Virus record (IMG/VR): IMGVR_UViG_3300029867_000009
Span: 1 to 36,754 of that record
Length of the DNA stretch: 36,754 nucleotides
Source: a virus
Reading direction: 5' to 3' (one strand)
In this document: one piece after another, positions 1,828-27,065 of the stretch
How positions within the stretch are numbered: the first letter of the stretch is position 1
How the letters are laid out: each line of letters begins with the position of its first letter
The notes under the pieces: model-generated
Told to the model about the DNA's origin: nothing
Seen by the model: only the letters and a program-made list of their open reading frames with translations
Database searches by the model: none
Made by a program: the position numbers and the translations under genes

Positions 1828-3452
1828 TAGCGATCCATTATCCTAAAATAACTATCCGTTTGCGCGGTTAGGTCGCCCGTTCCGGTGTTATTCGCTACTT
1901 GTAGCTTGACGTAATCATTTTGATCTAGCGTAACGTTTATATTTATATCAAAATCGCCGCGGTCTGTGCCACCTACAAGATTATTGATATCTCTTGTCTG
2001 CGTGTAAACATCAATAAAGCTTGTTGCGGAACTATCGAACTTTACAACCTTGACCGCCACGTCATTATTTGCAGGGCCTGCAATAACAAGGGATGATATA
2101 ACTGTGAACTCTCTAGGGTCGTTGCCAATGTGCCGTAGCTGTCCGTTACTTGGTTCATCAAAGTGCTGTAAATCCGTTGGCCCCCATGTTCCCGCGAGGT
2201 CAACAAATGTTGATGGTGATGAAATTGTAGTTGTTGCAGTACTATCAACGTTAAGCGTTCCTCCAACGTGTGTATTCGGCATTCCTTGGTTTCCCGACCA
2301 TGCGCTTGCCAATTCCACCTCTGTTATATTTGGCGTGATATTAGAATCAGACGCATCAGAAGTGCCGTTACGGGTAATAATAGCGCCCGTTATCTGCAAT
2401 GTTGATGGATTGGCAAAGTTAGCGGCTGCAAAATCAAAGAAAGAGGCGCTTGCCGGAAGGTCAATGTTCTGATTGCTTCTAAAGCGTGACTGCATAAGAA
2501 AGCTCGCGCCAGCCTCAAACAATGACCCCGTGAACCCCGAATCTAGGCCTCTAACGATAGACACATCAATGAAGTAACCGCCCGCCCATGCGCCTTTTAG
2601 AATAAGGTTAGGAGAGCCACCAAAGCGTCCAGTTCCAGACTCTAACCCCTGGCGGTAATTGTCGATAGTTCCAAGGGAAGTACAATTGTTGTAGTTAATG
2701 CGCGCAAACTCAAATGCTTCGTTGCCGGTATCGCTTACAATGTCATAAACCTGTGATCCCGCGCCCGTAACTTCGATGGCGTAATCTTTACCCAAAAGGT
2801 TGCCGCTGCCACCTACGGGAGATGTAAACATCGTGTAAGCGCCTGCGCTCGATATTAGCTTTGAAACATCGAAGTTATAGCCAGATAAATTCAGGCCCCC
2901 TACAGGAATTTCAATCTGTGTGGCTCCCATGTCAATAATGCCGTCAAGAAAGTATTCTTTGGTGCTGTCAAGCGCGCCTGATAGGTCCGAAGCGCTTTGA
3001 ACCAAGATTCTATTAATGCCGCCAAGTGATCCCGCTACGGCAAGAGTAACTTGATCATTTGATTTAGTGATGTTCATGCCGTCACCAGCAATCAATGTGG
3101 ATAATGTGGGGTCTTCAATGGTGAAGTCGTCTATAAGCTTGATGCCTGTCGCGCCCTGTTGCATACCAGATTTAACTTCAACGCTTTCTTGCGCATTAAT
3201 TGAAGTAATAATCCCGTCACCCCCAACAATGGAGCGAATGACCTTAGTTACACCTTGGTCGTCAAGAACCTGTGCGCCTGTTGCCTCGCCCCCTTGAACA
3301 ATGGTTCCCACAGTGCCGAACGCTGCAATCATATCAGATGCAGGGATTTTAAAGTTAACCCCCGCAGACACGAAATCAAACGTTGCATCACTAGGAATTT
3401 CCGTATTAGCCGGGAATGTTGATTTTCTTATGCCTTGGCTTCTAACTACCAT
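1827..3452 (-). CDS. Tail fibre/tailspike-like structural protein (541 aa)
   Basis: Long ORF in the virion module, rich in G/S/T/N beta-type segments (GGDGIITSINAQESVEVK, GDGMNITKSNDQVTLAVAG). It overlaps the adaptor gene by 11 nt. No family recognised. Confidence 0.45.
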   Translation of the reverse strand: MVVRSQGIRKSTFPANTEIPSDATFDFVSAGVNFKIPASDMIAAFGTVGTIVQGGEATGAQVLDDQGVTKVIRSIVGGDGIITSINAQESVEVKSGMQQGATGIKLIDDFTIEDPTLSTLIAGDGMNITKSNDQVTLAVAGSLGGINRILVQSASDLSGALDSTKEYFLDGIIDMGATQIEIPVGGLNLSGYNFDVSKLISSAGAYTMFTSPVGGSGNLLGKDYAIEVTGAGSQVYDIVSDTGNEAFEFARINYNNCTSLGTIDNYRQGLESGTGRFGGSPNLILKGAWAGGYFIDVSIVRGLDSGFTGSLFEAGASFLMQSRFRSNQNIDLPASASFFDFAAANFANPSTLQITGAIITRNGTSDASDSNITPNITEVELASAWSGNQGMPNTHVGGTLNVDSTATTTISSPSTFVDLAGTWGPTDLQHFDEPSNGQLRHIGNDPREFTVISSLVIAGPANNDVAVKVVKFDSSATSFIDVYTQTRDINNLVGGTDRGDFDININVTLDQNDYVKLQVANNTGTGDLTAQTDSYFRIMDR

Positions 3453-3936
3453 CTATTTCGTCCTGTGTACCGGTTTCTACACCAATTGCGCCCGTTGTCT
3501 CGGATAGGATCTCTTCTTCGGTACACCCATAGTATTTGCGGCTGTTCGTGCTGTTGTCGTAATTGCCAGAACCTCGCGGTAGCGTAGAAGGAAATGCGGT
3601 TTCACCTAACACAATTCCTAGCTGTTGCATTGTTTTCAGGCCGGACTCTGCCGCCCTAACTAATCCAGAGCTAATGTCTCCTCCATAATCGGGGGAAATC
3701 TCTATAGCTATGTTCGCAATAGCGCCCCGTAGAGCGCCAAGGGGGATAGTAACTTCATCACTGAGGCTTGTGACCACCGTATAGCCAAGTTTCACGCCTT
3801 GAGCGTCTAGGTCCAGCATGTAGTTGTTCATAGAAAAGATTGCATCACTGAACTCGTCAGCCTGCAATTCAGCGTCTGCACCTTGAACAAGTATGCGCTT
3901 TAATGATGCTTCTAGAACTTGTGCAGCGGTTGCCAT
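3442..3936 (-). CDS. Head-to-tail adaptor, P22 gp4-like
   Basis: 164 aa. ...IANIAIEISPDYGGDIS...AFPSTLPRGSGNYDNS... parallels P22 gp4 ...LACRIAPDYALEAT...PYPSRMPTGSGNSF... It lies downstream of the capsid gene. Confidence 0.65.
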   Translation of the reverse strand: MATAAQVLEASLKRILVQGADAELQADEFSDAIFSMNNYMLDLDAQGVKLGYTVVTSLSDEVTIPLGALRGAIANIAIEISPDYGGDISSGLVRAAESGLKTMQQLGIVLGETAFPSTLPRGSGNYDNSTNSRKYYGCTEEEILSETTGAIGVETGTQDEIDGS

Positions 3937-4074
3937 TTATTCGGCCTTTTTCTCTTTGGATTTCTTCTTAGGTCCACGCTTGCGTTTCCAGCCGAAGCCT
4001 TCAGCCGCCGCAATTGATCCCTCTGTTTCGTTAACTTCAAGCTCAACACCGCTTGGTTTTACCCACATACCCAT
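3937..4074 (-). CDS. Small Lys-rich ORF (45 aa) between the capsid and adaptor genes
   Basis: Hand translation gives MGMWVKPSGVELEVNETEGSIAAAEGFGWKRKRGPKKKSKEKKAE. GGAG lies 7 nt upstream of the ATG, and the stop abuts the adaptor ATG. It is below the ORF-track length cutoff. Confidence 0.45.
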   Translation of the reverse strand: MGMWVKPSGVELEVNETEGSIAAAEGFGWKRKRGPKKKSKEKKAE

Positions 4075-4088
4075 AATAACACTCCGTG

Positions 4089-4119
4089 AAAAGGTAGGGA
4101 GCCGCCGAAGCAGCCCCCC
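4089..4119 (-). terminator. UUCG-tetraloop hairpin plus short U tract immediately after the major capsid gene (leaky terminator or mRNA stabiliser)
   Basis: The minus-strand RNA is GGGGGCUGC-UUCG-GCGGCUCCC, a 9-bp stem with two G-U pairs, followed by UACCUUUUC. It lies 14 nt after the capsid stop, and (GA)5 sits at 4120..4130. Confidence 0.5.
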
Positions 4120-4132
4120 GAGAGAGAGAAGT

Positions 4133-5419
4133 TTAACCGAAGCTCTTACCGGCCATGAATGGATTCATAACGCCGTAAGCTGGTAGAATATCAACCCGAA
4201 GAACTTGCTTGTTCTGGATCAAGTTACCATCAAGAGCCATACGCATTGAAATACCGTCAACGTTAACTACGCTGTTGTCCATGCCGTGTAGCTTAGGAAT
4301 GTCAACAAAGCCCAATGTGAAGGCGTCAGGGTGCCAGAATAGATTAGGCTGGAAGGTTGTTGATGCAGCACCAAGTAGGGTGATGACATCAGTTGCAACA
4401 ATCGCGCTGTCTACAGTGTTATAGGCACCAGCGGCTTCAAAGATGGCTGGACCTGCGATAATGATAGTACCATCACCGGAACCGTCTAGTAGAGCATCCG
4501 CTGTAACAACGGCAGTAAATGGAACCTTAGCGCCGGTTTCATCAATGATCGGATCGCGTGTTGACTTATCAAGTGCGAAACGTCCAGAAATGCGGATAAC
4601 TTCACCAGCACGAATCTGAAGGTTAGCCTGGAAACCAGTGATCGCAACTGATTGCGTCATAGTGTCCTTGGCTGCAAGATAAGTAACAACCGGGTTAGTG
4701 TCGATAGCACCGGCACGATCAGCGCCAACCTCTGAGGAATATGTAGGTAGCGTATTAGCTGTGAACACGTCCATTCCAGCAAAGTTTCTAGTGATCAATG
4801 CTTTTTCGTGAGCTGTATCAACAAGTGAGTTACTACCTGAACCCAAAGAACGCTGGTCGCTAGCTAGGGCGCGCTGGGTGAATGGGTTAACATAGTATTT
4901 CCATGCTTTATCCATTGGTACGCCGTTAGCCTGCATTACTGCGCCAGCATCGGCCACATGATCCCATGTGCTAACTGCTGTGCCGTATGTACCAGAAAGC
5001 AAACCAGCATTTTTACTGATAAACGCTGCATAGTCACGCTCTAGGTCAGTTGCAAGGCGGGTAGCCATTGGACCAAAGATAGACTGAAGCTCGCCGGGCT
5101 TGCCTTTTTGGTCAAGCTCAATAGCTTCTTGTAGGCGGTTATACTCAACCCATACAGTACGCCATTCCTGGACTGTAGCAGTTGCCTTACCAGCAATCAG
5201 AGCGCTTGATGTTGAGGAAGTCAAATCACCAGTTGCATCAGTAAATGATGTGTAATCGTGCGGGCGCTTAACATCAACCTTGTCACCTGTTGACGGGTTA
5301 AACTGTCCTGAAATCAACTGTGTGTTAACGCCTTTTGACAGCACGCGAGCACTATCAAAAGCAGGGAGAAACTTACGAAGAAGTTTTCGTGTTATGTTGC
5401 TGTCTAAATTGTCAGCCAT
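4133..5419 (-). CDS. Major capsid protein (P22 coat / gp5-like)
   Basis: 428 aa, directly downstream of the scaffold gene. Length and order match the P22 coat family, and it is followed by a strong hairpin. Confidence 0.8.
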   Translation of the reverse strand: MADNLDSNITRKLLRKFLPAFDSARVLSKGVNTQLISGQFNPSTGDKVDVKRPHDYTSFTDATGDLTSSTSSALIAGKATATVQEWRTVWVEYNRLQEAIELDQKGKPGELQSIFGPMATRLATDLERDYAAFISKNAGLLSGTYGTAVSTWDHVADAGAVMQANGVPMDKAWKYYVNPFTQRALASDQRSLGSGSNSLVDTAHEKALITRNFAGMDVFTANTLPTYSSEVGADRAGAIDTNPVVTYLAAKDTMTQSVAITGFQANLQIRAGEVIRISGRFALDKSTRDPIIDETGAKVPFTAVVTADALLDGSGDGTIIIAGPAIFEAAGAYNTVDSAIVATDVITLLGAASTTFQPNLFWHPDAFTLGFVDIPKLHGMDNSVVNVDGISMRMALDGNLIQNKQVLRVDILPAYGVMNPFMAGKSFG

Positions 5420-5429
5420 TTCTAGTCAC

Positions 5430-6233
5430 CTATTTATAGACGGCCCTTTTGTTAATGTCCGGTTCTTTATCCGGTATGCCTGAACCACTAACAATAGATA
5501 CAGGCTTTGGGGCCGTGGTTGTTTTCCGTGTGCCTGTAAGCTTAGGTTTGACTTCAGAGTGAATATATACAGCGGCCTGTGCTAGTGACATTCTAAAAAC
5601 TTTATCACGTTCTACAGGGTCGTTAGCTAAATGGGCTGTAATCAGCGGTCCGTGTGCGTCATCAAGTATATGATAAAACAAACCTTCCGATATTCCATCC
5701 CGCGCAAGGATATTAGCGCTGTCATTCATTGCTGCTTCTTCAATACCGAATGATTTCGCTGAACCCTCGTATTTAGTTACACGCTGCTTTTGTACCTCTT
5801 GGTTCTCAACCTGCTTACGGTAAGTCTCTTGCTGGATTTGCGCTTCATGCGCCTGTTGTCCTGCATTAAACTCAGCACGTTTAATTATTGCCGCTTCCCT
5901 TGCCTCGACTTGAGCCTTGTATTTGGCCGGATCATCGAAATGTTCATCGGGGTTAGGGAGTGGCGGAAGTTCTGGTGCCTTATCCTCTGGCAGCTTGCCT
6001 TGCATTTCTGTTAACTGGCGTTGTAGGTCTTCAGCTCTGCGCTCTGCTGCGCGTTGTGCTCCAACCTTCTGCCCGATTAACTCGTTGACTTTAGCTTGCT
6101 GCGGTTCGTCAAAAGTAACCTTCGCTTCCTGTTCAACCGGGGCGTCACCCTCTGGCTGTTCTGCTTCTACCGGTGCCGACTCGGTAACAACATCTTCTAC
6201 GATGTCTTGCGGCTCATTCTGGAAATCATCCAT
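5430..6233 (-). CDS. Scaffolding protein
   Basis: 267 aa with an acidic N-terminus and a long charged helical/coiled region (AERRAEDLQRQLTEMQ..., QQETYRKQVENQEVQKQR). It lies between the portal and capsid genes. Confidence 0.7.
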   Translation of the reverse strand: MDDFQNEPQDIVEDVVTESAPVEAEQPEGDAPVEQEAKVTFDEPQQAKVNELIGQKVGAQRAAERRAEDLQRQLTEMQGKLPEDKAPELPPLPNPDEHFDDPAKYKAQVEAREAAIIKRAEFNAGQQAHEAQIQQETYRKQVENQEVQKQRVTKYEGSAKSFGIEEAAMNDSANILARDGISEGLFYHILDDAHGPLITAHLANDPVERDKVFRMSLAQAAVYIHSEVKPKLTGTRKTTTAPKPVSIVSGSGIPDKEPDINKRAVYK

Positions 6234-6315
6234 TTTTTAATGCCCTTATAGGTGTAAATGCCACGCTTCACCCAGCGCGTAGGGGTAGTTTATCATAAAG
6301 TTAACCAAATTCAAG

Positions 6316-8502
6316 TTAATCAATCTGTTCCTGTCCTTCAGTAACAACATTCGATTGTGTTATGAAATTATCTATGATGCCAGGGCCGGTGATAACGTCA
6401 GCGCCTGAAGCTTCTCGAATAGTCTTCATTGTGTCAGCGTTCGTGTTCAGCCTCTTAACCACATCATTCAAGGCTGTATTGGTTGCTTCCTGCATTTTGA
6501 GAAGCTGATTGAACTGCTGGTCACGGGCTTTTAAGTCAAGGTTTGAAGACTTCTCAGCGAATGTAACGTCCTGCTCTTGCGCCTTCAATTGAAGTTTAGC
6601 TGCTTCAATCTGGTTAAGCTGCTGCTTATTAGCTGTGTCAGCCTGTAATCGCGCTGCTTCAATCTGGTTTCTCTGGTGGTCAGCGTCTGCTTTCGCTTGC
6701 TCCGCTTGTGCCAGCACCATCTCAGCGCTCGGCTCTTGTGGCTGTTGTGCTGCACGGGCTGCCTGTTCCTTCTCATCGTCTGTTAGTTGGTCTTCAGGAA
6801 TCACACCACTACTTAATAACTGATGGCGTGAACGTTCGGCAATCTTATCAATGCCGGGTGTGGAAATGTTATTCAGTAGAATGTCTTGGCCAAGCGCAAT
6901 GATAGAAGGATCAATAGCAGCAAGCTCAAGCAATCCTTGCACAGTCTCTTGCTGGCGGCTGTTGAATGAAGGGCCAGCGGTGCAAGTCACATCATACTTG
7001 CCTATGGTCAAATCATTAAGCGTGACTTGCTCGCCTGTTTGTTGGTCAATAGTTACTTGGTTGATGTCCTGCATGTCGAATGAACCATCTTCGCTCATGA
7101 TCCGCACTTGTCTCTCAACATCGTAAACCTTCGGCAGTGCATCCAGTATTAAGCGGCCTGTCTGGCAAATAGCTATCTCAAGCGCTTTGAAGTATTTAAC
7201 CGTGATGTTGTTGGATTTCGTTTGAAGCTTCTCAATAGCCACGCCTGATTGTGCGTTAGGGTTGTTGCCCATGCCCGCAGCGAAGATACCAGACGCTGAA
7301 CCCATAATCTGTTGCATACCGTCAGACATAACACGCAGGCCTTGGTTAATCTGTGCGCCGCCGTTCTGCTGTGGTGGTCCTGGTACTGTAGCGTCATTGT
7401 TATAGAATTGAACAGGATCTGCATTGGTGTTTAGTGTGCGTAAAGAATCTGTATGCCCTTTAGCTTGCTCTGTGGTCATCCAGTACTTAGCACGCGGAGC
7501 TAGTGCGCCTTCCTCAATCTCACGGGATAGCGAGTAATTCATAACCCGCTGCGGGTCTACAAGCTTACGTACAGCGCCGTGATAGGTAGTCTTGTTCTCG
7601 ATAACCTTAAAGTTACCGTATGCAGGGACAAGAGGGATCTGACTAAAAACTGTTTCTTCTTCTTCTTCAAGCCATCCGTCTGCGTCAAACTTACGCATGA
7701 AGAACGTATCATCTTTAACCATGCGCGTGTCTTGAACTGTTTCACCAGCGGCGGCTAGTTCGTCTTCAATCTTCTTGAAATCTTCGTCGTTCTCAAACAC
7801 ACGGCCAAGGCTAGTCTTTACAAGCTCGCGCTCTGTCTGCTTTCGGTAATAGATATGCCCAATGACTACAGTTTCCGCCTTGTCAAAGTATGCGGTGGCG
7901 TCGTTGCCATCACTAACACTTGAGCCGGAACCTTCAGGCCATAGCTGCTTGAACTTCTCTGTAGGAATTGCGGATAACAGAAAACCATACTCACTGTCTG
8001 ATGCATCTCTATTCTGTGCTCCAACGTCAAACCAAACCCTGTCAGTGAAATTGTAGATTGGCTTTACAACAATGTCTTGGTCGAAACTATTGTCGTTCAG
8101 GAACTCACTAACAACCATCCATCCATCTATTCCAGATGTGACAACGTTGCGCCCTGCGTCTGCGTAAATTCCCTGTGCATTGGATAGGTTCTCGATATTC
8201 CTCACCATACCATCACGCAGCTCTGCAAGCTCTTTGGTCGCGTCGTTTCCTGCGGGGGAAATCTTAATGTCAAAGTCTGACTGTTCAATGTCTCCTGAAA
8301 TCTGGTCAACGATTGGTGAAGTCATATCAAATGTATAACGGGGCTTACCCTCGCAATCAGACCAGAACTTTGGTTCCCATTGACCATCAACCTTGGTAAC
8401 AAATAAATGATCGTCGCGGGCTAATTCCCTTTGATCATCATCGGCGGATTGTGCCTCTTCTAGTAACCGGATCGCTACTTCGTGTTTAGTAAAGTCTGGC
8501 AT
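6316..8502 (-). CDS. Portal protein (P22-type, with a long C-terminal helical barrel)
   Basis: 728 aa, immediately after TerL. The C-terminal Q/A/K-rich helical tail (QAKADADHQRNQIEAARLQADTANKQQLNQIEAAKLQLKAQEQD) resembles the P22 portal barrel. Confidence 0.85.
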   Translation of the reverse strand: MPDFTKHEVAIRLLEEAQSADDDQRELARDDHLFVTKVDGQWEPKFWSDCEGKPRYTFDMTSPIVDQISGDIEQSDFDIKISPAGNDATKELAELRDGMVRNIENLSNAQGIYADAGRNVVTSGIDGWMVVSEFLNDNSFDQDIVVKPIYNFTDRVWFDVGAQNRDASDSEYGFLLSAIPTEKFKQLWPEGSGSSVSDGNDATAYFDKAETVVIGHIYYRKQTERELVKTSLGRVFENDEDFKKIEDELAAAGETVQDTRMVKDDTFFMRKFDADGWLEEEEETVFSQIPLVPAYGNFKVIENKTTYHGAVRKLVDPQRVMNYSLSREIEEGALAPRAKYWMTTEQAKGHTDSLRTLNTNADPVQFYNNDATVPGPPQQNGGAQINQGLRVMSDGMQQIMGSASGIFAAGMGNNPNAQSGVAIEKLQTKSNNITVKYFKALEIAICQTGRLILDALPKVYDVERQVRIMSEDGSFDMQDINQVTIDQQTGEQVTLNDLTIGKYDVTCTAGPSFNSRQQETVQGLLELAAIDPSIIALGQDILLNNISTPGIDKIAERSRHQLLSSGVIPEDQLTDDEKEQAARAAQQPQEPSAEMVLAQAEQAKADADHQRNQIEAARLQADTANKQQLNQIEAAKLQLKAQEQDVTFAEKSSNLDLKARDQQFNQLLKMQEATNTALNDVVKRLNTNADTMKTIREASGADVITGPGIIDNFITQSNVVTEGQEQID

Positions 8503-8503
8503 A

Positions 8504-9955
8504 TTACCACCCTGAAAAATTAATCTTTATTGGTGCAGATTGTGCGGGCGGATTGTACATAGTCATCATTACCGCGTCTGCCTCGTTAGGGGATGCAATC
8601 TTGAGCTTCTTCATATCTTCCTTGCTCATGATCTGTTCTAACCCTTGTGCGTTCGGCTTACGTGGTATCCTGCAAAGCTGCGTTCTGAGCGAAACGATAT
8701 CACCTATACCGTCAACATTCAAACTTATCATTTCTGCAGGGTCAACGTACTTTCCCTTAATGACACAGTTGTAGGTGTTCTTGAAACGCCTCGCTAGTTC
8801 AATGTAATATTGCGCCCGGTTGTTCTTAAACGTGTCTGCGTAGGTTTTAACTTTGCTGTCTGAATCTCTGTCACCGTCTACAGGCATATAGGGAAGCTCT
8901 GCGTTATCCTGGCCTTTGCCTGATAAGCTACCCTTGAACATATGGTACTTGGTGTGCGTTCCTTTGAAGGCTTCTGATACTTGGAACTTTAACCCTGTTC
9001 CCATGCCGTCACCATCCCACACGAACCAATCAACATTATGATCCCGCGAGAGTTTGGTTGCCCATGAACACACTGCGTCTATCTCGCCTGTTTCTTTGGT
9101 GTGTACCTCTGTGATTATGCTGCCGTGTCGTATTGCAAAGCCCGCAGCGTCTCCGCCGTCATCAAATGGATCATGTGCAGCAATCTTAGCGCCCTGTGGC
9201 TCAAACATCGCTTTAAGGTGAGGGAGTTTGTGCGCGTCCTTGGCTGCGTCAAACCATTCTGGAAGGATAATGGAACCATCAACGCTGTCGTTAAACTTGC
9301 CTTCCCATACCCAATCATACTTAGTGCGGGGCATGGTGTTGAAATCGTGTTGCCGTATCTTTTCCTGTGCGTCGTTCCACCAAGGATTATCCCGCCAGTT
9401 CAACACAAGGATCATGTGAAGGTCATCCTCATAGTATCCGTTAGCGTCTAATTCCCTCTGGAACGGAACAATAAACCTTTGGCTAAATGGATCGCCGCTA
9501 GCTTCAGGGTTTGCCGTAAACCAGCATTCTGCGCCCTCTGTTCGGATAATCGTCGGGATTAGCTTATCAAGGCTCTCAGCGCTGGCGGTCTGCGCTTCCT
9601 CAAACCATGAAATAGGGTAGCCTTTAACTGACTTCACACTGTCAGGGTTACGGCGTGCGCCCTTGTATGTTGTCCTAGCTCCGTTGGGCGCAACTATCTT
9701 GGTTGCTTGCAAGTCCCAACCTTCAAGGCCAATACGCTCTACAATGCTATCCTTCAGCTCGTTATGAACAGAATCGTCTACACTGTCTTGGAACTCACGT
9801 AGGCACATGATTGATACGCCATCAGTGAGCATTTTAAAAACCATGCAGTCAGCAACGCCGATAGATTTACCGGAACCACGCCCGCCTATGATTATCTTTA
9901 GGGGCTTGTGAACACGTAAGAAGCGCTCAAGCTTGTCGTTAACTTGTAGCTTCAT
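8504..9955 (-). CDS. terL: Terminase large subunit
   Basis: Walker A GGRGSGKS, Walker B-like ISWFEEA and nuclease-domain acidic motif AHDPFDDGGD. 483 aa. Confidence 0.93.
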   Translation of the reverse strand: MKLQVNDKLERFLRVHKPLKIIIGGRGSGKSIGVADCMVFKMLTDGVSIMCLREFQDSVDDSVHNELKDSIVERIGLEGWDLQATKIVAPNGARTTYKGARRNPDSVKSVKGYPISWFEEAQTASAESLDKLIPTIIRTEGAECWFTANPEASGDPFSQRFIVPFQRELDANGYYEDDLHMILVLNWRDNPWWNDAQEKIRQHDFNTMPRTKYDWVWEGKFNDSVDGSIILPEWFDAAKDAHKLPHLKAMFEPQGAKIAAHDPFDDGGDAAGFAIRHGSIITEVHTKETGEIDAVCSWATKLSRDHNVDWFVWDGDGMGTGLKFQVSEAFKGTHTKYHMFKGSLSGKGQDNAELPYMPVDGDRDSDSKVKTYADTFKNNRAQYYIELARRFKNTYNCVIKGKYVDPAEMISLNVDGIGDIVSLRTQLCRIPRKPNAQGLEQIMSKEDMKKLKIASPNEADAVMMTMYNPPAQSAPIKINFSGW

Positions 9956-9957
9956 TC
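9943..9957 (-). repeat. 15-bp junction repeat, copy 1 (minus strand GAATGAAGCTACAAG)
   Basis: Identical to 10116..10130. It contains a stop/start ATGA overlap plus the codons for MKLQ. Confidence 0.95.
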
Positions 9958-10128
9958 AACCAACCTTGGTTGGCCTGCTATAGATAACATTCCGCCAACA
10001 CCAACAGTTAATCTAACATTGTAGTCTCTCAGCAATTGCAGCGTTATTTTAGCTAAGTGTGTTTTCCCACCAGAAAGCCATACGTTGTGCTGTAATATAC
10101 CTGCGTGTATTTGCTCTTGTAGCTTCAT
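9952..10128 (-). CDS. Mini-ORF B (58 aa) coupled to TerL
   Basis: Hand translation gives MKLQEQIHAGILQHNVWLSGGKTHLAKITLQLLRDYNVRLTVGVGGMLSIAGQPRLVE. Its TGA overlaps the TerL ATG (ATGA). It has the same first four codons as TerL. Confidence 0.35.
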   Translation of the reverse strand: MKLQEQIHAGILQHNVWLSGGKTHLAKITLQLLRDYNVRLTVGVGGMLSIAGQPRLVE

Positions 10129-10130
10129 TC
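10116..10130 (-). repeat. 15-bp junction repeat, copy 2
   Basis: cttgtagcttcattc on the plus strand, identical to 9943..9957. Confidence 0.95.
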
Positions 10131-10205
10131 GGTGCGGTCTTGTGCCTTGTTTCCACCGTATCCTTCAATAAGCCATTCTTGGTCAATAAGTGTTTCAGTG
10201 CTCAT
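10125..10205 (-). CDS. Mini-ORF A (26 aa) with a strong RBS
   Basis: MSTETLIDQEWLIEGYGGNKAQDRTE. AAGAGGG lies 6 nt upstream of the ATG, and the stop overlaps the mini-ORF B start (ATGA). Confidence 0.3.
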   Translation of the reverse strand: MSTETLIDQEWLIEGYGGNKAQDRTE

Positions 10206-10288
10206 TTTAACCCTCTTTTCCCTTTAAAAGTGTGAAATATTGTCTTACCCCCGTATATTTCGAGACTAACGACGGAGAAATGCAACTT

Positions 10289-10774
10289 CTAATCTTTATT
10301 ATCGGAGCTAACGAACTCGACAACCATCTTTGTGTCTGACTGAATAGCGCCACCGTTGGGGCCTGATAGCTCTTGTGTAACTTTATCGCCAAACCGCTTA
10401 GGGTTAAGCTTGGACATAGCCCATTTTCTAGCATTAACGCGAAGGTTTGCCCGTTGGATAGCGTCACCGTTAACAAGGACTTCACCGGATGCAGTCTTCT
10501 TGTAGTCAAAGCCAGAATCGTCAGCAATATCAATGATTTCGTCAAGGTAACGCTCGGCTTGAGCTTCTCGCGCACACGCATATTTCTCTTGAAACTCAGG
10601 GTACTTATTAAGCCACGCATAAACTGTGCTGGCTCCTGGCATATCATCAGGCTTACAAACGCTCTCTAAGCCTTCACCTTGAGCGATAGCTAGGCATAGC
10701 TTGGTTACGTTCTCTTCGTTGTATCCTGTGGGTCTACCTATGGCGGGTTTATTGTCTACGATAGTCATGATCAA
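10289..10774 (-). CDS. terS: Terminase small subunit (Sf6 gp1-like)
   Basis: GRPTGYNEENVTKLCLAIAQGEGLESVCK...STVYAWLNKYPEFQEKYACAREAQAE...LRVNARKWAMSKLNPKRFGDKV closely parallels the Sf6 gp1 sequence as I recall it. Confidence 0.85.
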   Translation of the reverse strand: MIMTIVDNKPAIGRPTGYNEENVTKLCLAIAQGEGLESVCKPDDMPGASTVYAWLNKYPEFQEKYACAREAQAERYLDEIIDIADDSGFDYKKTASGEVLVNGDAIQRANLRVNARKWAMSKLNPKRFGDKVTQELSGPNGGAIQSDTKMVVEFVSSDNKD

Positions 10775-11063: not shown

Positions 11064-11528
11064 TTATTTGGTTAGGTTTACGCCTTCACATCTTGCAGCG
11101 AAATTGAACAATCCTGGCTCAACTGAGATGCCTTTTTTCTTCAGCTCTACGCACATCATGATAATGTCGTATTCACCCTGGCGTTGGGCCGAGCGTATGA
11201 TTGATTGTTGCAGCTTCTTACAGCGTGTCACTGTTGATCCTAGTGGGATGCTTAAGCTAATGCCGCCAGTGAAGCCCGTTGTGCCTCTACCATAGTAACC
11301 GCTTGTGTACGTCGGGAGTATGCCCACTGTGAGTTTAGGCGCGTCACAAGTTACGGCCTCGCGTGTGAATAATGATTGGGAAGCTCTGCCATCACCGAAT
11401 GAATAAATGTTCTGGTTGTTGGTGTTGGCGGAATTGAAAGACGATTGCAAATTTGATTGCAAGCTGTCCTGTGCTACGGCCCCCGTCGTGAAACAGAGGC
11501 CGAGCACCACTAGAACCAGCCGGTTCAT
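11064..11528 (-). CDS. Secreted protein of unknown family (signal peptide, N/Q/S-rich head, 4 Cys)
   Basis: MNRLVLVVLGLCFTTGAVAQ looks like a signal peptide. TAATG coupling to the upstream gene. Confidence 0.7.
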   Translation of the reverse strand: MNRLVLVVLGLCFTTGAVAQDSLQSNLQSSFNSANTNNQNIYSFGDGRASQSLFTREAVTCDAPKLTVGILPTYTSGYYGRGTTGFTGGISLSIPLGSTVTRCKKLQQSIIRSAQRQGEYDIIMMCVELKKKGISVEPGLFNFAARCEGVNLTK

Positions 11529-12028
11529 TAATCTACTCGCGAATAGCTGATGTTAGTGGTGTAACGCTCACGTGTGTTTGTGTCGCTTCCATAACGGGTG
11601 GTTTCGTCAATGGTTGCGAATGTGGTTTCGAGGGCGTTGCTATTGAAAGCCACATCGAGTGAAAAACCATTAACGTTGGAAGTTCCGCGAACACGGGTGG
11701 TGCTGCGTGAGCGTGTGTATAGATCACGGTTGCCTGTGGTGGCTGTCAGTCCGTTGAAACTGTACGACGCGCTGGAGAACGTGCCGTTTGTGCGTGAACT
11801 GCCACGCTGGCGAATGCGGTAAGTGTCTGTTGTGACCATGTGGCTAAGGCTGAAGCCATTAGGAGCGCCTGAAGCATGATCGTTAGTGCTAATGCTAAGT
11901 CCATCAGTTACCGCCCATGAATTTGTATTTGAGTGAGTTACGCCGTTAACGTAAATGTTTGTGGTGTCCGTTGCGGCGGCACCAAACGATAAGGCTAGAA
12001 CGGCAGAAATCGCGAGTAGTTTTTTCAT
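11528..12028 (-). CDS. Secreted S/T/N/R-rich beta-type protein of unknown family
   Basis: The ATG at 12028 (MKKLLAISAVLALSFGAAATD...) is preceded by AGGAAG 4 nt upstream. The longer track ORF (to 12115) lacks an RBS. The NGFSL motif is duplicated. Confidence 0.7.
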   Translation of the reverse strand: MKKLLAISAVLALSFGAAATDTTNIYVNGVTHSNTNSWAVTDGLSISTNDHASGAPNGFSLSHMVTTDTYRIRQRGSSRTNGTFSSASYSFNGLTATTGNRDLYTRSRSTTRVRGTSNVNGFSLDVAFNSNALETTFATIDETTRYGSDTNTRERYTTNISYSRVD

Positions 12029-12076
12029 TAGTCTTCCTAAATTAAAGTTGTGACCAATGATTGTTATGTTTTTAAC

Positions 12077-12114
12077 TGAGGGGAATACAGCCTTACTGTG
12101 ACTATACCCCCTCA
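12077..12114 (-). other. Hairpin in the 122-nt spacer between the protease gene and the secreted-protein pair
   Basis: tgagggg (12077..12083) pairs with cccctca (12108..12114), with an inner ACAG/CTGT stem. No U tract follows on either strand. Confidence 0.5.
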
Positions 12115-12150
12115 ATGTGTTGCATTAAATCTTCTTGTGTTGCTGAATTA

Positions 12151-12648
12151 TTACATATGAATGATGTAGCTTATTGTTGGCTTTGGGTAAACTAGCTGCC
12201 CAATAATTTGCTCTGGCTTGTAGTGAGAATGTTTCACCTTAACCATTGTGCTGTAAACCTTGCCGTACCTGCCTTCATATGGGGCCTCGATTAAATACGT
12301 GCCGCTTGTTGTTTCAATGAATAAAACAGCGTGTGCAAAATACTCATCGTATCGACGGGCTTTCACATACATAACCCGCAGAGAGTTTCCTTGAGTGCCA
12401 ATTGCGTCTTCTATCTGGCCTTTGTAGGCAAGCGCCCAATCTTCGCAGTCACCCTGCCAATCAGCTAGTCTTAAATCAATGCCGTAATCTACAACGCCGT
12501 GCTTCTTGATGTCAGAAACATAAGTCCCGCGTTCCTGCACGTATTCGAGTGCGTGCTTAATTGCCTTGATGTTCTCTTTATGTGGGATTTGTGCGAGTGC
12601 TGGAACGGTAAACATTAGCATTACAGCGGTTAAAATAATGGTTTTCAC
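12151..12648 (-). CDS. Exported transglutaminase-like cysteine protease (BTLCP / LapG-like, PF06035-type)
   Basis: GTG start with GGAG 9 nt upstream. Signal peptide MKTIILTAVMLMFTVPALA|Q. Ordered motifs YVSD..DY..WQGDCEDWALAYK ... FAHAVLF ... YLIEAP match the GDCED[YF]A / HAVL / LD signature of BTLCP proteins. Confidence 0.6.
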   Translation of the reverse strand: MKTIILTAVMLMFTVPALAQIPHKENIKAIKHALEYVQERGTYVSDIKKHGVVDYGIDLRLADWQGDCEDWALAYKGQIEDAIGTQGNSLRVMYVKARRYDEYFAHAVLFIETTSGTYLIEAPYEGRYGKVYSTMVKVKHSHYKPEQIIGQLVYPKPTISYIIHM

Positions 12649-12650
12649 TT

Positions 12651-12821
12651 TTATTTCTCCAATGCCTTAAGTACGTCTATGCGAACTTGCAAAACCCTCT
12701 CTGCTATCAAGGGTATGTCTTCACCCCATCCAGTTACTGCGTGTGGTGTGCGGCCTATGTACCTGGCGAACTCTGCCTTAGTCTTGAAGCCTGCCGCGTG
12801 TAGCCTGTCTACAAAGTTCAT
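12651..12821 (-). CDS. Small HTH protein (Cro/YdaS-like, 56 aa)
   Basis: Hand translation gives MNFVDRLHAAGFKTKAEFARYIGRTPHAVTGWGEDIPLIAERVLQVRIDVLKALEK. ATGA coupling with the upstream ORF. Confidence 0.55.
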   Translation of the reverse strand: MNFVDRLHAAGFKTKAEFARYIGRTPHAVTGWGEDIPLIAERVLQVRIDVLKALEK

Positions 12822-12934
12822 AGGGATTTCTTAACCGCGTCGATCATTGAAGGAATTGCAACAAATAGCACCACCCCTACCAGTGCAGTTATTCCCGCAA
12901 CGTTGGCGGCAAAGCTTAATATCTGATCAATCAC
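12818..12934 (-). CDS. 38-aa single-TM peptide
   Basis: GTG start preceded by GGGAGAGAGAC. Sequence (M)IDQILSFAANVAGITALVGVVLFVAIPSMIDAVKKSL. The stop overlaps the next ATG. Confidence 0.4.
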   Translation of the reverse strand: MIDQILSFAANVAGITALVGVVLFVAIPSMIDAVKKSL

Positions 12935-13033
12935 GTCTCTCTCCCTGAATTAATGTACGGGCTTTTTGTCATTCTTCGTAAGGCTACCCGCATCCCCTCA
13001 CATCAGCCGGGTACGTCCCGGTCTACTTCTGAA

Positions 13034-13207
13034 TTAATCGCCGTCAGCCACATTTCCCGTAGGTGGCAGCAACTCTATTTTCATGCCCTTTAGCTGCATG
13101 TCATTGCCTCCAATGTGGACGCTCAGGGGATTTGTACATACAATCTCGTATGCAATGCCTCTGGTGGTGCGGCCTTTGTCGCCTAGCTTGAATTTATAAT
13201 TGTTCAT
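13034..13207 (-). CDS. Hypothetical 57-aa protein
   Basis: Verified codon by codon: MNNYKFKLGDKGRTTRGIAYEIVCTNPLSVHIGGNDMQLKGMKIELLPPTGNVADGD. RBS context GAGGGCGAGACATG. Confidence 0.5.
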   Translation of the reverse strand: MNNYKFKLGDKGRTTRGIAYEIVCTNPLSVHIGGNDMQLKGMKIELLPPTGNVADGD

Positions 13208-18515: not shown

Positions 18516-18746
18516 ATGAGTAAGAATAAACACACCAAACAGGCGGTTGCTAATGTTGAGTCGGCGCTTGTGAAGGCGCAAGTTAAGCTTGGCTCCCTTC
18601 TCGCTAGAACAGGTATAGCCGCCTCGCAGTGGTCCCAATATAAAGGCGGGTTCAATAGCCCTTCAGTAGAAAGATGGGTTATGGTTGAGATGGAATTAGC
18701 AGGCATTCTTGAAGAAATCAGGGAGCTTGAAAATGGACGCGAATAA
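18516..18746 (+). CDS. Cro/XRE-like HTH regulator
   Basis: 76 aa. LGSLLARTGIAASQWSQYKGGFNSP is an HTH pattern. It is the first gene of the rightward operon at the divergent switch region. Confidence 0.65.
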   Translation: MSKNKHTKQAVANVESALVKAQVKLGSLLARTGIAASQWSQYKGGFNSPSVERWVMVEMELAGILEEIRELENGRE

Positions 18747-19209
18747 ATTCCTTGTAGATTACATCAGGCCGGTATTGTCTGAAATGGATATGTTTAGCGC
18801 ACCTGCTGAAAAGCTTTTGCTAATGACGGCGTGCCACGAAAGCGGCGGTTTCAGAACAAAGGTTCAAGACGGTGGAGGCCCTGCAAGGTCTTACTTTCAG
18901 GTAGAGCCTACAACGCTTGAAGATCTATCGGATAATTACCTACGTTACAGGCCGCATAAAATACGTGTGCTTGAGAAGTTCGAGGGTGAAGGCGATAGCT
19001 TGGCAGAGATGCTGCTTGATAACCGTTACTCTGTGGCAGTTGCCAGGATGATCTATTCTCGCGTTCCTGAGCCGCTACCAGCCGTTGAAGACAATAAAAA
19101 CATGGCTAGGTACTGGAAGACATATTGGAACACACATCTAGGCGCTGGAACTGTTAAGAAGTTTCTTGCGGATTGGAAGTTATATAGGCCGGAGGGATAC
19201 CATGAATAA
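18733..19209 (+). CDS. Lysozyme-like / lytic-transglycosylase-like protein (endolysin candidate)
   Basis: ATG at 18733 with GGGAG upstream. TACHESGGF...GGGPARSYFQVEPTT resembles the E-S ... G-x-x-Q motifs of SLT-type enzymes. No signal peptide. Confidence 0.4.
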   Translation: MDANKFLVDYIRPVLSEMDMFSAPAEKLLLMTACHESGGFRTKVQDGGGPARSYFQVEPTTLEDLSDNYLRYRPHKIRVLEKFEGEGDSLAEMLLDNRYSVAVARMIYSRVPEPLPAVEDNKNMARYWKTYWNTHLGAGTVKKFLADWKLYRPEGYHE

Positions 19210-19669
19210 GTCCTTAGATGACATTAAAGATTGCGAAAACTGTGAGCACTTTCAGCGGAAATATGAATGGGTTCAGAATGGTGAGAGGAAGCATAGAAAA
19301 ACAAGACCTTCTGAATGCCAAAACGATGATTTTCCACCGATTGTGAATGGAGAAAGGTCATGCGCTCTTATGCGGTCCACCCTGTGTGGAAGAGAAGCGT
19401 CTGGATATGAGCATATAGATTGGATTGAGCGCCGCGATATTTCTAGAAGGTATTATGCGCATGTAGCCAAAATTAAGGAACATGCGAAAAAATGCCCGTG
19501 GACAGAGTCGATAATTTCTTTTTTTCTGCACCTATGCTTCATAATTCCCGGTATCGCCTACAAAGATAAAAAAGAAGAACCTCGTTATGCTGAGGCGCGT
19601 GAGCTTTATCCTTGGCCTAATGATCTTCCTCAATATCTGTCATTCAATCGTTTAAATAAGTGGGATTAA
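19202..19669 (+). CDS. Cys-rich protein with a C-terminal TM segment (CxxCxH[YF] family)
   Basis: ATG at 19202 (GGAGGG upstream, overlapping the previous stop). DCENCEHFQ...SECQ...ERSCALMRSTLCGREASGYE, with the hydrophobic stretch IISFFLHLCFIIPGIAY. Confidence 0.6.
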   Translation: MNKSLDDIKDCENCEHFQRKYEWVQNGERKHRKTRPSECQNDDFPPIVNGERSCALMRSTLCGREASGYEHIDWIERRDISRRYYAHVAKIKEHAKKCPWTESIISFFLHLCFIIPGIAYKDKKEEPRYAEARELYPWPNDLPQYLSFNRLNKWD

Positions 19670-19672
19670 GCT

Positions 19673-19852
19673 ATGAAAAAGTCATCAGTTGACACTCCAA
19701 AAAATTGTTTGATCGGGTGTATTTTGGCTGTTGCCCTTATGGTTCTTGCTGACGTTTTAGAACACTTCGGGTGGGTAGGTGAGGCTAAAGATTTCCTGAT
19801 CATTATGATTATTATGCGGCTCTATATCATGGAAAAGGGGTTAAGCTCATGA
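19673..19852 (+). CDS. 59-aa membrane protein
   Basis: Hand translation gives MKKSSVDTPKNCLIGCILAVALMVLADVLEHFGWVGEAKDFLIIMIIMRLYIMEKGLSS. ATGA overlap with the next gene. It is just below the track cutoff. Confidence 0.5.
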   Translation: MKKSSVDTPKNCLIGCILAVALMVLADVLEHFGWVGEAKDFLIIMIIMRLYIMEKGLSS

Positions 19853-25596: not shown

Positions 25597-25804
25597 GTTC
25601 CATAGCAAGATTGTGGCGGCGTTCTTCTCTCACCTGCCACAATTTAATGGCAATACCCGTAACGGCTACAAATAGAGTTATTAAAATGCCATATGCTGGT
25701 GCATTAGCCCCTATGCTGTCTAGCCATGATAAACCGGATACTGTAGCGCTACCGCTTGCGCCCACTATCATCATTCCGGCCCCGGTTTTCCCTGTTAAAG
25801 TCAT
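25529..25804 (-). CDS. Two-TM holin-like protein, last gene of the late operon
   Basis: 91 aa with hydrophobic segments GAGMMIVGASGSATVSGL and YGILITLFVAVTGIAIKLW followed by a basic tail. ATGA coupling. Confidence 0.5.
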   Translation of the reverse strand: MTLTGKTGAGMMIVGASGSATVSGLSWLDSIGANAPAYGILITLFVAVTGIAIKLWQVREERRHNLAMEPKKKIPPRHSQPTPPNQYHTSS

Positions 25805-26430
25805 TTTGGCGCTTTCTCAATAGGCGGGCGGAACACCGACATAATAAGACTATTCCGGCCTCTAGTAGTATAATTGGGACTAGCCACAACGGATGCAAGC
25901 CCACTAATGCGCCCCATAAGTCTAGAAATATTCCATCCATCCCGCTTCCCACCACTAATAATTACTGCTATCTGTGCAGCGTTCAGGGCTAAAATGCACC
26001 ACGCATAGTTGTAATATATAATGTTGATTCCTGCAAGTAGCTGTTTGAATGGTGTTTGCTGCGAGTGTCCACCGCTGTATAGTAGTATTTTAATTATAAG
26101 CAGTGCGGATATAATAGCGGATAGGCCCAATATAATGCCCATTTCATCGCGGCCTTTTCGTGAATACCTAACGATTAAAGATAGGGTTGCTAGATCAAGA
26201 GCGCCAGCTATCCCATACATAGCAACGTTTGTAAGTAGCGTACCGTGTGCCGCAGCATATTCAAACACAAACGCCAGCAATAGATTTAAGGCACACACAG
26301 CGCCAATAATAAACAGTGTGGGGTGCCAAGTGTCAGGCTTTTGTACCGTAGGCAATGAAAGGCCAAGCATCCCAAAGAAGCACAGAGCCATAATCACATA
26401 GGGGGTATATTGTGCAATCTCGTAGCTCAT
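25801..26430 (-). CDS. Polytopic membrane protein (5-6 TM) of unknown function
   Basis: The ATG at 26430 overlaps the upstream stop (ATGA). There are repeated hydrophobic 18-22-aa segments. No family recognised. Confidence 0.65.
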   Translation of the reverse strand: MSYEIAQYTPYVIMALCFFGMLGLSLPTVQKPDTWHPTLFIIGAVCALNLLLAFVFEYAAAHGTLLTNVAMYGIAGALDLATLSLIVRYSRKGRDEMGIILGLSAIISALLIIKILLYSGGHSQQTPFKQLLAGINIIYYNYAWCILALNAAQIAVIISGGKRDGWNISRLMGRISGLASVVASPNYTTRGRNSLIMSVFRPPIEKAPK

Positions 26431-26687
26431 TTTTCGCAAAACCTTTCTGCAAGGTCGTTGTTATCCGCAATCTTGTCTAGATCTTGCTTTACATAGTCAG
26501 GCCACGGCTCACGGGTTAACCAAGCTTTAGTTTCCTCTGAAAACTTCTGGCTTTCAAACCAAGTGCAGTCTGTAGCAAGTTTAACTCGTATTGTGGGAGT
26601 TAGAAAACTACAAGCGCTTAACGATGTCAGCGTCAGTAGAAGAATTGTTAATCTTCCTATGCTCCGAAGCTTCTTTCCTGATTTCAT
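26427..26687 (-). CDS. Lipoprotein (o-spanin-like or exclusion lipoprotein)
   Basis: ATG at 26687: MKSGKKLRSIGRLTILLLTLTSLSAC with lipobox LSAC. The mature part has C..W...S..T..W...N....C spacing as in Rz1-like lipoproteins. Confidence 0.55.
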   Translation of the reverse strand: MKSGKKLRSIGRLTILLLTLTSLSACSFLTPTIRVKLATDCTWFESQKFSEETKAWLTREPWPDYVKQDLDKIADNNDLAERFCEK

Positions 26688-26808
26688 CTTGCTTGTCTCT
26701 GCTTTCAAGTTCAGCTTTTCTAGCACCGTCTGCTTTTAACTCCGCATCCCTAGAATTTTGCATTCCAATTCCAAGGATACGAAGAAAGCTTTTAACAATC
26801 TCAAGCAC
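26608..26808 (-). CDS. Small coiled-coil protein overlapping the lipoprotein gene out of frame (i-spanin-like)
   Basis: GTG start. 66 aa with a weakly hydrophobic N-terminus and a charged helix. The 80-nt overlap with the lipoprotein ORF resembles an Rz/Rz1 arrangement. Confidence 0.35.
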   Translation of the reverse strand: MLEIVKSFLRILGIGMQNSRDAELKADGARKAELESRDKQDEIRKEASEHRKINNSSTDADIVKRL

Positions 26809-27065
26809 TAACCGCCGCCGGGCAATGTATCGTCGCCAGGAAGTACCGGAGGGTCCGGAACAATAACCACGCGATTAGGCGCAATGTCTTTTGCTTTACC
26901 GAAGTTGAGCGCGAGGAACTCAATAATTCCGTAGATTTTACCTACAAGTTCGTCATCTTTCGGTGTTGGTGTTAGTGCAACAATAGCCTTTGCTCCCACC
27001 ATCAACGAGAGTAGTGCTGTTAGCCAAGCAGGCGCTTGACCAAATAGTTCTAAAACAGTCTCCAT
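26808..27065 (-). CDS. Small membrane protein (holin candidate)
   Basis: 85 aa with the hydrophobic stretch APAWLTALLSLMVGAKAIVAL followed by TPTPKDDE. Confidence 0.5.
   Translation of the reverse strand: METVLELFGQAPAWLTALLSLMVGAKAIVALTPTPKDDELVGKIYGIIEFLALNFGKAKDIAPNRVVIVPDPPVLPGDDTLPGGG

Follow-up and report, generated by a model that had tools for sequence, protein, structure and literature searches.

A predicted exported cysteine protease of the BTLCP family in a marine P22-like podovirus

What would a phage gain from sending a small cysteine protease into the envelope of its host? The question is raised by a 165-codon gene in the virus record IMGVR_UViG_3300029867_000009, which we analysed over its whole length of 36,754 nucleotides (hereafter the window). 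A sequence-only reading of this DNA had described the gene product as a phage-encoded, exported, LapG-like member of the bacterial transglutaminase-like cysteine proteinases (BTLCPs), with a peptidoglycan peptidase acting as the missing endolysin as the alternative. We find that the product, here called the target protein, is placed by profile and fold in the BTLCP family, that it belongs to a rare subfamily in which a Glu takes the place of the canonical triad Asp, and that it is not a LapG ortholog. On balance we think it somewhat probable that it is an accessory, Sec-exported cysteine protease that acts in the periplasm on a host envelope protein, and that it would thereby remodel the cell surface without control by cyclic di-GMP (c-di-GMP) and LapD.

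Family, fold and catalytic residues of the target protein

The sequence-only reading had claimed membership of PF06035, and had proposed a profile search and structure prediction as checks. The PF06035 profile (Peptidase_C93, BTLCP) matched the target protein with an E-value of 8.8e-7; at 29.3 bits the score clears the gathering cut-off of 27 only marginally. The same family was precomputed for the protein and for its three closest clusters. The protein aligned to Pseudomonas fluorescens LapG (4u65_E) in a phmmer comparison (E 1.5e-4), as did the subfamily profile (E 6e-6). An AlphaFold2 model made with 61 sequences reached a pLDDT of 89.2 and a pTM of 0.83; it superseded a first model made with four sequences (pLDDT 61), for which all fold matches were non-significant. 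In a Foldseek search with the 61-sequence model, the top six matches in the PDB were all LapG structures (probability 1.00, E 1.3e-5 to 5.6e-3), followed by other transglutaminase-like cysteine proteases: TglA, CPR-C4, PeiP/PeiW and the vasohibins. The TM-scores between the model and the LapG structures were only 0.42–0.50, and we therefore take them to have a common core, with much else different. Judged by these profile and fold matches, the target protein is a member of the BTLCP (Peptidase C93) family with a transglutaminase-like (papain-like) fold, as had been expected.

The catalytic residues are well conserved. Asp67, Cys68 and Asp70 were found in 61/61 relatives, Glu69 in 58, His106 in 60 and Asp46 in 59, which bears out the GDCED...HAVL motifs on which the original assignment was built. 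The suspicion that the third triad position holds Glu instead of Asp also proved right: Glu121 (YLIEAP, where canonical members have YVLDN) lies at His+15, a spacing identical to that of the canonical Asp, and is aligned with it both by MAFFT and by hhalign against the BTLCP of Shewanella phage 3/49. In the 61 relatives this column contains Asp 51 times, Glu eight times and Asn once, and every Glu falls within the subfamily of the target protein. Chemically Glu121 is equivalent to the canonical Asp, and we treat it as the putative third triad residue. The third triad position tolerates change, since a D241N allele of the Caulobacter BTLCP HvyA is functional (PMC4241560). In DvhG, a LapG-family protease, the Asp and Glu beside the catalytic Cys form a calcium site, and replacing them (D316A/E318A) or the Cys (C317A) abolishes activity (PMC13090378); the target protein carries the corresponding residues of the family, Asp67 and Glu69, in the alignment.

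Relatives that share the Glu are scarce. A word-indexed search of 5.8 billion proteins returned four clusters only, namely the target protein itself, one at 75% identity and two at ∼40%, and when 1.84 billion representatives were searched exhaustively with a profile, 60 matches reached E ≤ 1e-3, just nine of them E ≤ 1e-10. We conclude from these searches that the target protein belongs to a rare subfamily with a putative Cys68-His106-Glu121 triad, within which Gly129, Tyr143, Gly150 and Tyr154 of the C-terminal lobe are kept. Its own cluster comes from a 37,307-bp contig (NVUW01000011.1) in a metagenome-assembled genome (MAG) labelled Thalassobium sp., and the homologs at ∼40% identity are chromosomal, with an S24 peptidase, a cold-shock protein, an EAL protein and flagellar genes as neighbours. 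No LapD or adhesin was found at these two cellular loci, and the EAL-only protein nearby has no recorded LapD periplasmic domain. Run against viral, reference-genome and metagenome contigs, the subfamily alignment picked up generic BTLCPs only; when the matches were re-scored with a hidden Markov model, true subfamily members were confined to the two cellular homolog contigs, and the context evidence for the subfamily is thin for that reason. These two contigs (8487–10344 and 4285–6146) share a trio of S24 peptidase (LexA/UmuD-like), cold-shock protein and BTLCP genes, divergent from a gene for a 545-aa EAL protein, and the trio may form a small islet or be regulated as a unit.

The signal peptide proposed for the target protein holds up when judged by rules: it has Lys2, a strongly hydrophobic core of 13 residues (maximum 12-mer Kyte–Doolittle value 2.67) and the ending P-A-L-A|Q, with A-x-A at −3/−1, and a hydrophobic N-terminal segment is present in 11/11 subfamily members. 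A signal-arrest-release (SAR) endolysin reading of the N-terminus was ruled out by the strongly hydrophobic core, a Gly/Ala/Ser/Thr content of only 35%, and the AxA site; the segment fits an ordinary, cleavable Sec signal and not a SAR anchor. LapG and HvyA, the BTLCPs that have been characterised, both reside in the periplasm (PMC4241560; PMC4359373; PMC13090378).

The gene itself is real and in working order. Translation of 12151–12648 on the plus strand meets many stops; the open reading frame (ORF) lies on the minus strand, at exactly the coordinates first proposed for it, to which we add the strand and the GTG start. The protein reads MKTIILTAVMLMFTVPALAQIPHK...YVSD...DY...WQGDCEDWALAYK...FAHAVLF...YLIEAP, so that the strings quoted originally (MKTIILTAVMLMFTVPALA|Q, YVSD, DY, WQGDCEDWALAYK, FAHAVLF and YLIEAP) all occur in order. 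A Shine–Dalgarno sequence precedes the start, and in the 75%-identical sibling copy, from a Tara Oceans scaffold, AGGAG stands ahead of an ATG start. Comparison with that copy gave dN 0.144 and dS 1.19; with a dN/dS of 0.12, the target is a working gene kept by purifying selection. A recent foreign origin was ruled out by a GC content of 44.2% and a GC3 of 47.0%, typical of genes of the phage (means 47.7 ± 2.2% and 47.2 ± 6.3%).

LapG, HvyA and the BTLCPs of other phages

Is the target protein a LapG? Scored against the NCBIfam LapG equivalog (NF045674), it obtained 26.5 bits, where the cut-off is 320; none of its 61 nearest relatives (best E 2.8e-46) came near the cut-off, and all are non-LapG BTLCPs. 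Alignments to LapG, whether by phmmer or with the subfamily profile, end at the His motif HAVL, and the C-terminal lobe is therefore not detectably conserved. In LapG this lobe houses the binding pocket for the Trp of LapD (PMC4359373). The mature target protein has ∼146 aa, compared with ∼181–186 aa in the LapG crystal constructs. No LapD, type I secretion system or giant adhesin was found in the window; the substrate motif DP...[T/A/P]AAG is absent from all phage proteins, and [TAP]AA[GV] occurs in them two times against 3.4 expected. On these scores and alignments the target protein is not a LapG ortholog, and the label 'LapG-like', read as orthology or as function, is not supported. With LapG (4U65 of P. 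fluorescens, 4FGO of Legionella pneumophila) and DvhG it shares the Pfam family, the transglutaminase-like fold, the signal peptide, GDCED and HAVL; it differs in its Glu at the third triad position, its shorter chain, its non-aligning C-terminal lobe, its phage origin, and the lack of LapD/DvhD, a type I secretion system or an adhesin nearby. By analogy, it is nevertheless plausible that it works as LapG does in a general sense, as a calcium-dependent periplasmic cysteine protease acting on an envelope protein.

LapG had been presented as the one characterised BTLCP, which overlooks a second, HvyA of Caulobacter crescentus, which blocks capsulation (PMC4241560). HvyA is a stand-alone periplasmic BTLCP; its catalytic residues are required, its activity prevents capsulation and makes cells phage-sensitive, tying it to the interaction of phage and host through the cell surface, and its authors consider that BTLCPs act on lineage-specific periplasmic targets (PMC4241560). 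The target protein resembles HvyA as a stand-alone, presumably Sec-exported BTLCP with no c-di-GMP receptor partner, to judge from its predicted signal peptide and the absence of a partner gene in the window. HvyA differs in that it is a chromosomal, cell-cycle-regulated protein of 272 aa, encoded in a capsule export locus and with a Cys-His-Asp triad, and the likeness is one of description, not of sequence comparison. No capsule genes were found in the window.

The sequence-only reading knew of no described phage LapG. In the narrow sense this is true, but exported BTLCPs are already annotated in isolated phages. Megablast with the 8–20 kb region of the window and tblastn with the target protein gave no match in 50,697 phage records, and the phage BTLCPs came to light only through the fold search and through queries with canonical family members. 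In BFVD, the 'transglutaminase' of Caulobacter phage CcrPW ranked first among the viral fold matches, and a further five viral proteins had E < 4e-3. Canonical queries found S349_45 of Shewanella phage 3/49 ('transglutaminase Cys peptidase'), proteins of Shewanella phages 1/4 and 1/40 ('BTLCP-like protein'), and others in Rhizobium phages L338C and RHph_I4, in Xanthomonas and Erwinia jumbo phages and in a Methanosarcina virus. S349_45 aligned to the target protein in hhalign with a probability of 96.5%. It has a signal peptide, as does the BTLCP of L338C (that of phage 1/4 has a lipobox), and its gene lies between a tailspike gene and an M15-type endolysin gene with holin-like and Rz-like genes. 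Like the target protein, the BTLCPs of isolated phages are small; unlike it (∼26–29% identity), they have the canonical Asp and are without its C-terminal extension. Their genes lie after the tailspike and beside lysis genes (3/49) or near baseplate and tail genes (the others), whereas the target gene is upstream of TerS.

The family also appears in uncultivated viruses. Among the auxiliary genes of single-virus genomes from river water, BTLCP is reported to be the one identified most frequently, with horizontal transfer having spread it across viral clusters (PMC11283719, 2024). The target gene is similar in being cassette-like, for its sibling copy has different flanks, which matches the apparent horizontal exchange of PF06035 genes among many unrelated viral clusters in that study (PMC11283719); it differs in belonging to the rare Glu-type subfamily, while the river-water genes, compared here by description, are from freshwater viruses. 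We also observed four BTLCP paralogs within ∼6 kb (2280–8405) of the 240-kb record IMGVR_UViG_3300028045_000001, and, in the 31-kb record IMGVR_UViG_3300005264_000138 (7263–9659), a BTLCP domain (GDCEDFA...HAVL...YVLDN) inside a 798-aa protein that resembles a virion or tail protein. The latter protein suggests that some phages may deliver a BTLCP protease from outside the cell. By annotation and alignment, then, phage-borne exported BTLCPs are already known, and the target protein is a new one in a rare Cys-His-Glu subfamily.

Genome setting and lysis genes

To judge from its gene content, the window is a nearly complete genome of a marine P22-like podovirus, which agrees with the view that the protease is phage-encoded. 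It contains P22-type portal and coat genes, a Terminase_3 TerL, an Sf6-type TerS, and genes for a scaffold, a head–tail adaptor, a head-closure protein, an ejection protein and a tail fibre, together with RecT, NinB, RusA, a DNA methyltransferase and a replication protein of the DUF1376/DnaT type. Neither an integrase nor a repressor of the CI type could be recognised in the window, the GC content of which is 47%. The features discussed here are collected in Table 1.

Table 1. Positions in the window of the target gene, its parts and the neighbouring and lysis genes.
Feature	Coordinates	Strand	Basis and remarks
BTLCP (Peptidase_C93) gene	12151..12648	−	165 codons + stop, GTG start; ORF list, PF06035, AlphaFold2, fold match, dN/dS
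Shine–Dalgarno GGAG	12657..12660	−	8 nt upstream of the GTG start; direct sequence reading
Predicted signal peptide, residues 1–19 (MKTIILTAVMLMFTVPALA)	12592..12648	−	rule-based reading; predicted cut before Gln20
PF06035 BTLCP profile match	12289..12579	−	residues 24–120; same span aligns to LapG 4u65_E
D67-C68-E69-D70, nucleophile Cys68 between calcium-site Asp and Glu	12439..12450	−	GACTGCGAAGAT, read directly
Catalytic His106 (CAC) in FAHAVLF	12331..12333	−	direct reading; His in 60/61 relatives
Glu121 (GAG), position of canonical triad Asp	12286..12288	−	MAFFT and hhalign
Subfamily-specific C-terminal lobe, residues 122–165	12154..12285	−	no alignment to LapG possible
Cro-like helix-turn-helix gene, 56 aa	12651..12821	−	directly upstream of BTLCP; phrog_409 transcriptional regulator, E 1.9e-4; weak P22_Cro match
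Orphan secreted protein, 166 aa from ATG (MKKLLAISAVLALSFGAAA|T), Ser/Thr/Asn-rich	11528..12028	−	predicted signal peptide; co-oriented, downstream
Second orphan secreted protein, 154 aa (MNRLVLVVLGLCFTTGAVA|Q)	11064..11528	−	predicted signal peptide; weak phrog_1755 match
Probable lysis block	18733..19852	+	opposite to structural genes; transglycosylase-type endolysin candidate, Cys-rich 167-aa ORF, holin-like ORF
Holin-like ORF, 59 aa, two transmembrane segments	19673..19852	+	transmembrane prediction

The target gene, which the sequence-only reading had placed in an early operon, sits at a junction, with regulatory and replication genes on one side and TerS and terminase on the other. The minus-strand order is a 38-aa membrane peptide, the 56-aa helix-turn-helix (HTH) protein, the BTLCP, the 166-aa and 154-aa secreted proteins, a 65-aa ORF and TerS. 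The HTH gene and the BTLCP gene are probably translationally coupled, because only 2 nt separate the TAA stop of the former (12651–12653) from the GTG of the latter. The gene for the 166-aa secreted protein, which begins after a gap of 122 bp, is possibly in the same transcription unit. Both orphan secreted proteins are rich in Ser/Thr/Asn/Gly, and the pair is retained in a sibling phage contig (L109). Among the 5.8 billion proteins, their only homologs were themselves and sibling-phage fragments (for the 154-aa protein, itself alone).

The slot upstream of TerS is, by comparison with a relative, a variable accessory region in this lineage, because Vibrio phage 340E47.2, in which the coat, portal, TerL, replication and NinB genes of the window have homologs, carries unrelated small ORFs there. 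Relatives of TerS in IMG/VR were on short contigs only, with no shared synteny. Upstream of the HTH gene we noted an unlisted 38-codon ORF (12818–12934, minus strand) with a GTG start and GGGAGAGAG upstream of it, encoding a single-transmembrane peptide (MIDQILSFAANVAGITALVGVVLFVAIPSMIDAVKKSL); its stop codon (TGA) and the start codon (ATG) of the HTH gene overlap, and a terminator-like hairpin (12868–12886) falls inside it. The ORF is open also in a second sibling contig, L110 (86% nucleotide identity). In this 576-bp scaffold of ERZ28654044, compared with 11724–13084 of the window, the 5' part of the 166-aa gene stands head-on to the 38-aa/57-aa ORF region, a junction that implies an inversion or deletion removing the HTH and BTLCP genes, or an assembly chimera. 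Elsewhere, a block after the tail-fibre gene (25801–27065, minus strand) encodes an 85-aa protein with one transmembrane segment, a 99-aa lipoprotein (lipobox LSAC; weak Rz-like spanin match, E 0.009) and a 212-aa protein with five transmembrane segments; they may represent components of a spanin or holin, or act in superinfection exclusion.

Relatives of TerL and of the endolysin candidate described below are found in phages of Pseudomonas, Escherichia, Vibrio, Shewanella, Alteromonas and Pseudoalteromonas, and we take the host to be a marine proteobacterium, probably a gammaproteobacterium. In view of these relatives and of the GC content of 47%, the Thalassobium label is probably not that of the host, and we set it aside because a phage contig binned in a MAG is weak host evidence.

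The suggestion that the target protein supplies a missing endolysin presupposes that the phage has no other. Pfam, NCBIfam and PDB sequence searches indeed recognised no lysin anywhere in the window. The endolysin is not missing, however, because the 158-aa product of 18733–19209 (phrog_3108, 'unknown function' in PHROGs) is an endolysin candidate: it carries the motif HESGG...YFQVEP (E-S...YFQVE), and tblastn to annotated phages found its relatives in 151 phage records, several of them named endolysin, putative endolysin or lytic murein transglycosylase. Vibrio phage 340E47.2 likewise has an endolysin gene and a holin-like gene on the opposite strand, in a divergent locus. The target protein itself matched no lysin family, and its neighbours are not holin- or spanin-like. 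A separate observation concerns a 372-aa protein in the ejection-protein block (33371–34489, minus strand), residues 202–347 of which match an 'endolysin' PHROG (phrog_26675, E 2.9e-14), with no match to it in Pfam or the PDB; it probably represents a domain carried by the virion that degrades the cell wall during entry.

Proposed role and its alternatives

We propose that the infected cell would export the precursor and remove its 19-residue signal peptide, and that the mature enzyme of 146 residues would then work in the periplasm. There it would cut (less probably transamidate) an envelope protein of the host by which some surface structure is anchored. The changed cell surface might aid the release or spread of progeny, or prevent re-adsorption and superinfection. 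What the analysis shows is a real gene under selection, its family and fold, conserved catalytic and calcium-site residues, an N-terminus like a signal peptide and a variable accessory slot in a phage genome; export, protease activity, a substrate in the host envelope and a benefit to the phage are what we infer. Because the target protein has neither a detectable counterpart of the LapG C-terminal lobe nor, in the window, a LapD-type partner, it would act free of c-di-GMP control. As its substrate we rank first, tentatively, the periplasmic retention segment of a large adhesin, then, with slightly less conviction, a component of capsule or polysaccharide export, and then others.

The more specific versions of this proposal follow the two characterised proteins. 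Acting as a functional analogue of LapG, the target protein would free infected cells from biofilm, independently of LapD, by cutting giant RTX adhesins of the LapA type within their N-terminal retention module, at a di-alanine site ([T/A/P]AAG). Marine Gammaproteobacteria (Vibrio, Shewanella, Alteromonadales), the probable host group, commonly have Lap-type systems. LapG gives the best match among solved structures, the catalytic Cys and His and the D-C-E calcium site are kept, and DvhG retains LapG-type specificity at only 33% identity (PMC13090378). Nevertheless, the equivalog score and the non-LapG character of all the nearest relatives, the low TM-scores, the unaligned lobe and the shorter chain speak against it, as do the absence of LapD, secretion system and adhesin from the window and from the loci of the cellular homologs, the absence of the substrate motif from the phage proteins, and the example of HvyA, which shows that BTLCPs have other targets; we consider such an analogue unlikely. 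Slightly less likely again, in our estimate, is a periplasmic enzyme that acts in the manner of HvyA: it would inactivate a component on which the assembly of capsule or surface polysaccharide depends, leaving infected cells stripped of their capsule or unable to build it. HvyA does its work without a LapD partner and governs how susceptible cells are to phage (PMC4241560), the best viral fold match comes from a Caulobacter phage, and the BTLCP gene of Rhizobium phage L338C is a few genes from a 'polysaccharidase'. But the substrate of HvyA itself is not known, heterologous BTLCPs complement it in some cases only (PMC4241560), the likeness is by description, and nothing in the window is related to capsules.

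Two further explanations look to the phage's own genes and to lysis. The target protein could be a maturation enzyme that processes or cross-links the two secreted proteins encoded downstream, the three genes forming an envelope module. Three consecutive, co-oriented genes with signal peptides would suit this, the two downstream genes stay paired in the sibling contig, and transglutaminase-like enzymes can cross-link Gln and Lys (PMC4241560). The linkage is not conserved, however, since the flanks of the sibling BTLCP differ and the cellular homologs are without these neighbours; with the gap between the genes and no recognisable cleavage motif in the neighbours, we hold this to be very improbable. 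Still less credit is due to the view that the target protein is a Sec-exported peptidoglycan peptidase of papain/transglutaminase fold, serving as endolysin or lysis accessory. In its favour, the gene lies just upstream of TerS, the slot in which P22 keeps its lysis genes, Pfam and NCBIfam show no lysin in the window, and the BTLCP gene of Shewanella phage 3/49 abuts a lysis block. The fold family includes the phage-derived pseudomurein endoisopeptidases PeiW and PeiP of methanogen (pro)viruses, which are, like the target protein, virus-encoded Cys-His enzymes of transglutaminase-like fold that act on the cell envelope (a role that the target protein would share); they differ in cutting archaeal pseudomurein cross-links and in having extra binding repeats, and their matches are weak (E 0.08–0.24; psiM2 PeiP, E 0.27). 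Against it stand the endolysin candidate with its holin-like ORF nearby, the lysis genes of the Vibrio relative on the other strand, the M15 endolysin that phage 3/49 has beside its BTLCP, the lack of a flanking holin or spanin gene, a signal peptide of the cleavable and not the SAR type, and the non-phage contexts of the cellular homologs.

Several points weigh against the proposal of a periplasmic protease acting on the host envelope. The PF06035 score exceeds its cut-off by a small margin only; a Cys-His-Glu triad is only putative in the BTLCP family, and the placement of Glu121 comes from sequence alignment. The chemistry may be that of a transamidase instead of a protease, and the two orphan secreted proteins could be the real substrates. 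The Thalassobium label of the MAG is alphaproteobacterial, whereas the phage relatives infect Gammaproteobacteria. The cellular homologs at ∼40% identity sit in uninformative contexts (EAL, S24 peptidase, cold-shock and flagellar genes), and a promoter and terminator scan with an Rfam search gave nothing usable for early versus late expression.

Phage BTLCPs recur in genomes, yet none has a tested function, and their role is a real question. To this question the target adds a clear example from a small P22-like genome that is close to complete, under purifying selection and from a rare Cys-His-Glu subfamily with a distinct C-terminal lobe. For experiments, the Shewanella phages 3/49 and 1/4, which are in culture, offer a better way in. 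We can only speculate that, during infection, a surface anchor of the host is stripped by an exported BTLCP independent of LapD, so that a giant adhesin is shed or capsule assembly is blocked and infected cells leave the biofilm or become non-adsorptive; this would be a first role for the widespread viral BTLCP 'auxiliary genes', here by way of a divergent Cys-His-Glu subfamily, and in so specific a form we regard it as doubtful. If phage BTLCPs do cut adhesin anchors or block the capsule, phages would directly rewire biofilm attachment and the state of the cell surface, which would bear on dispersal, on superinfection exclusion and on phage therapy against biofilms.

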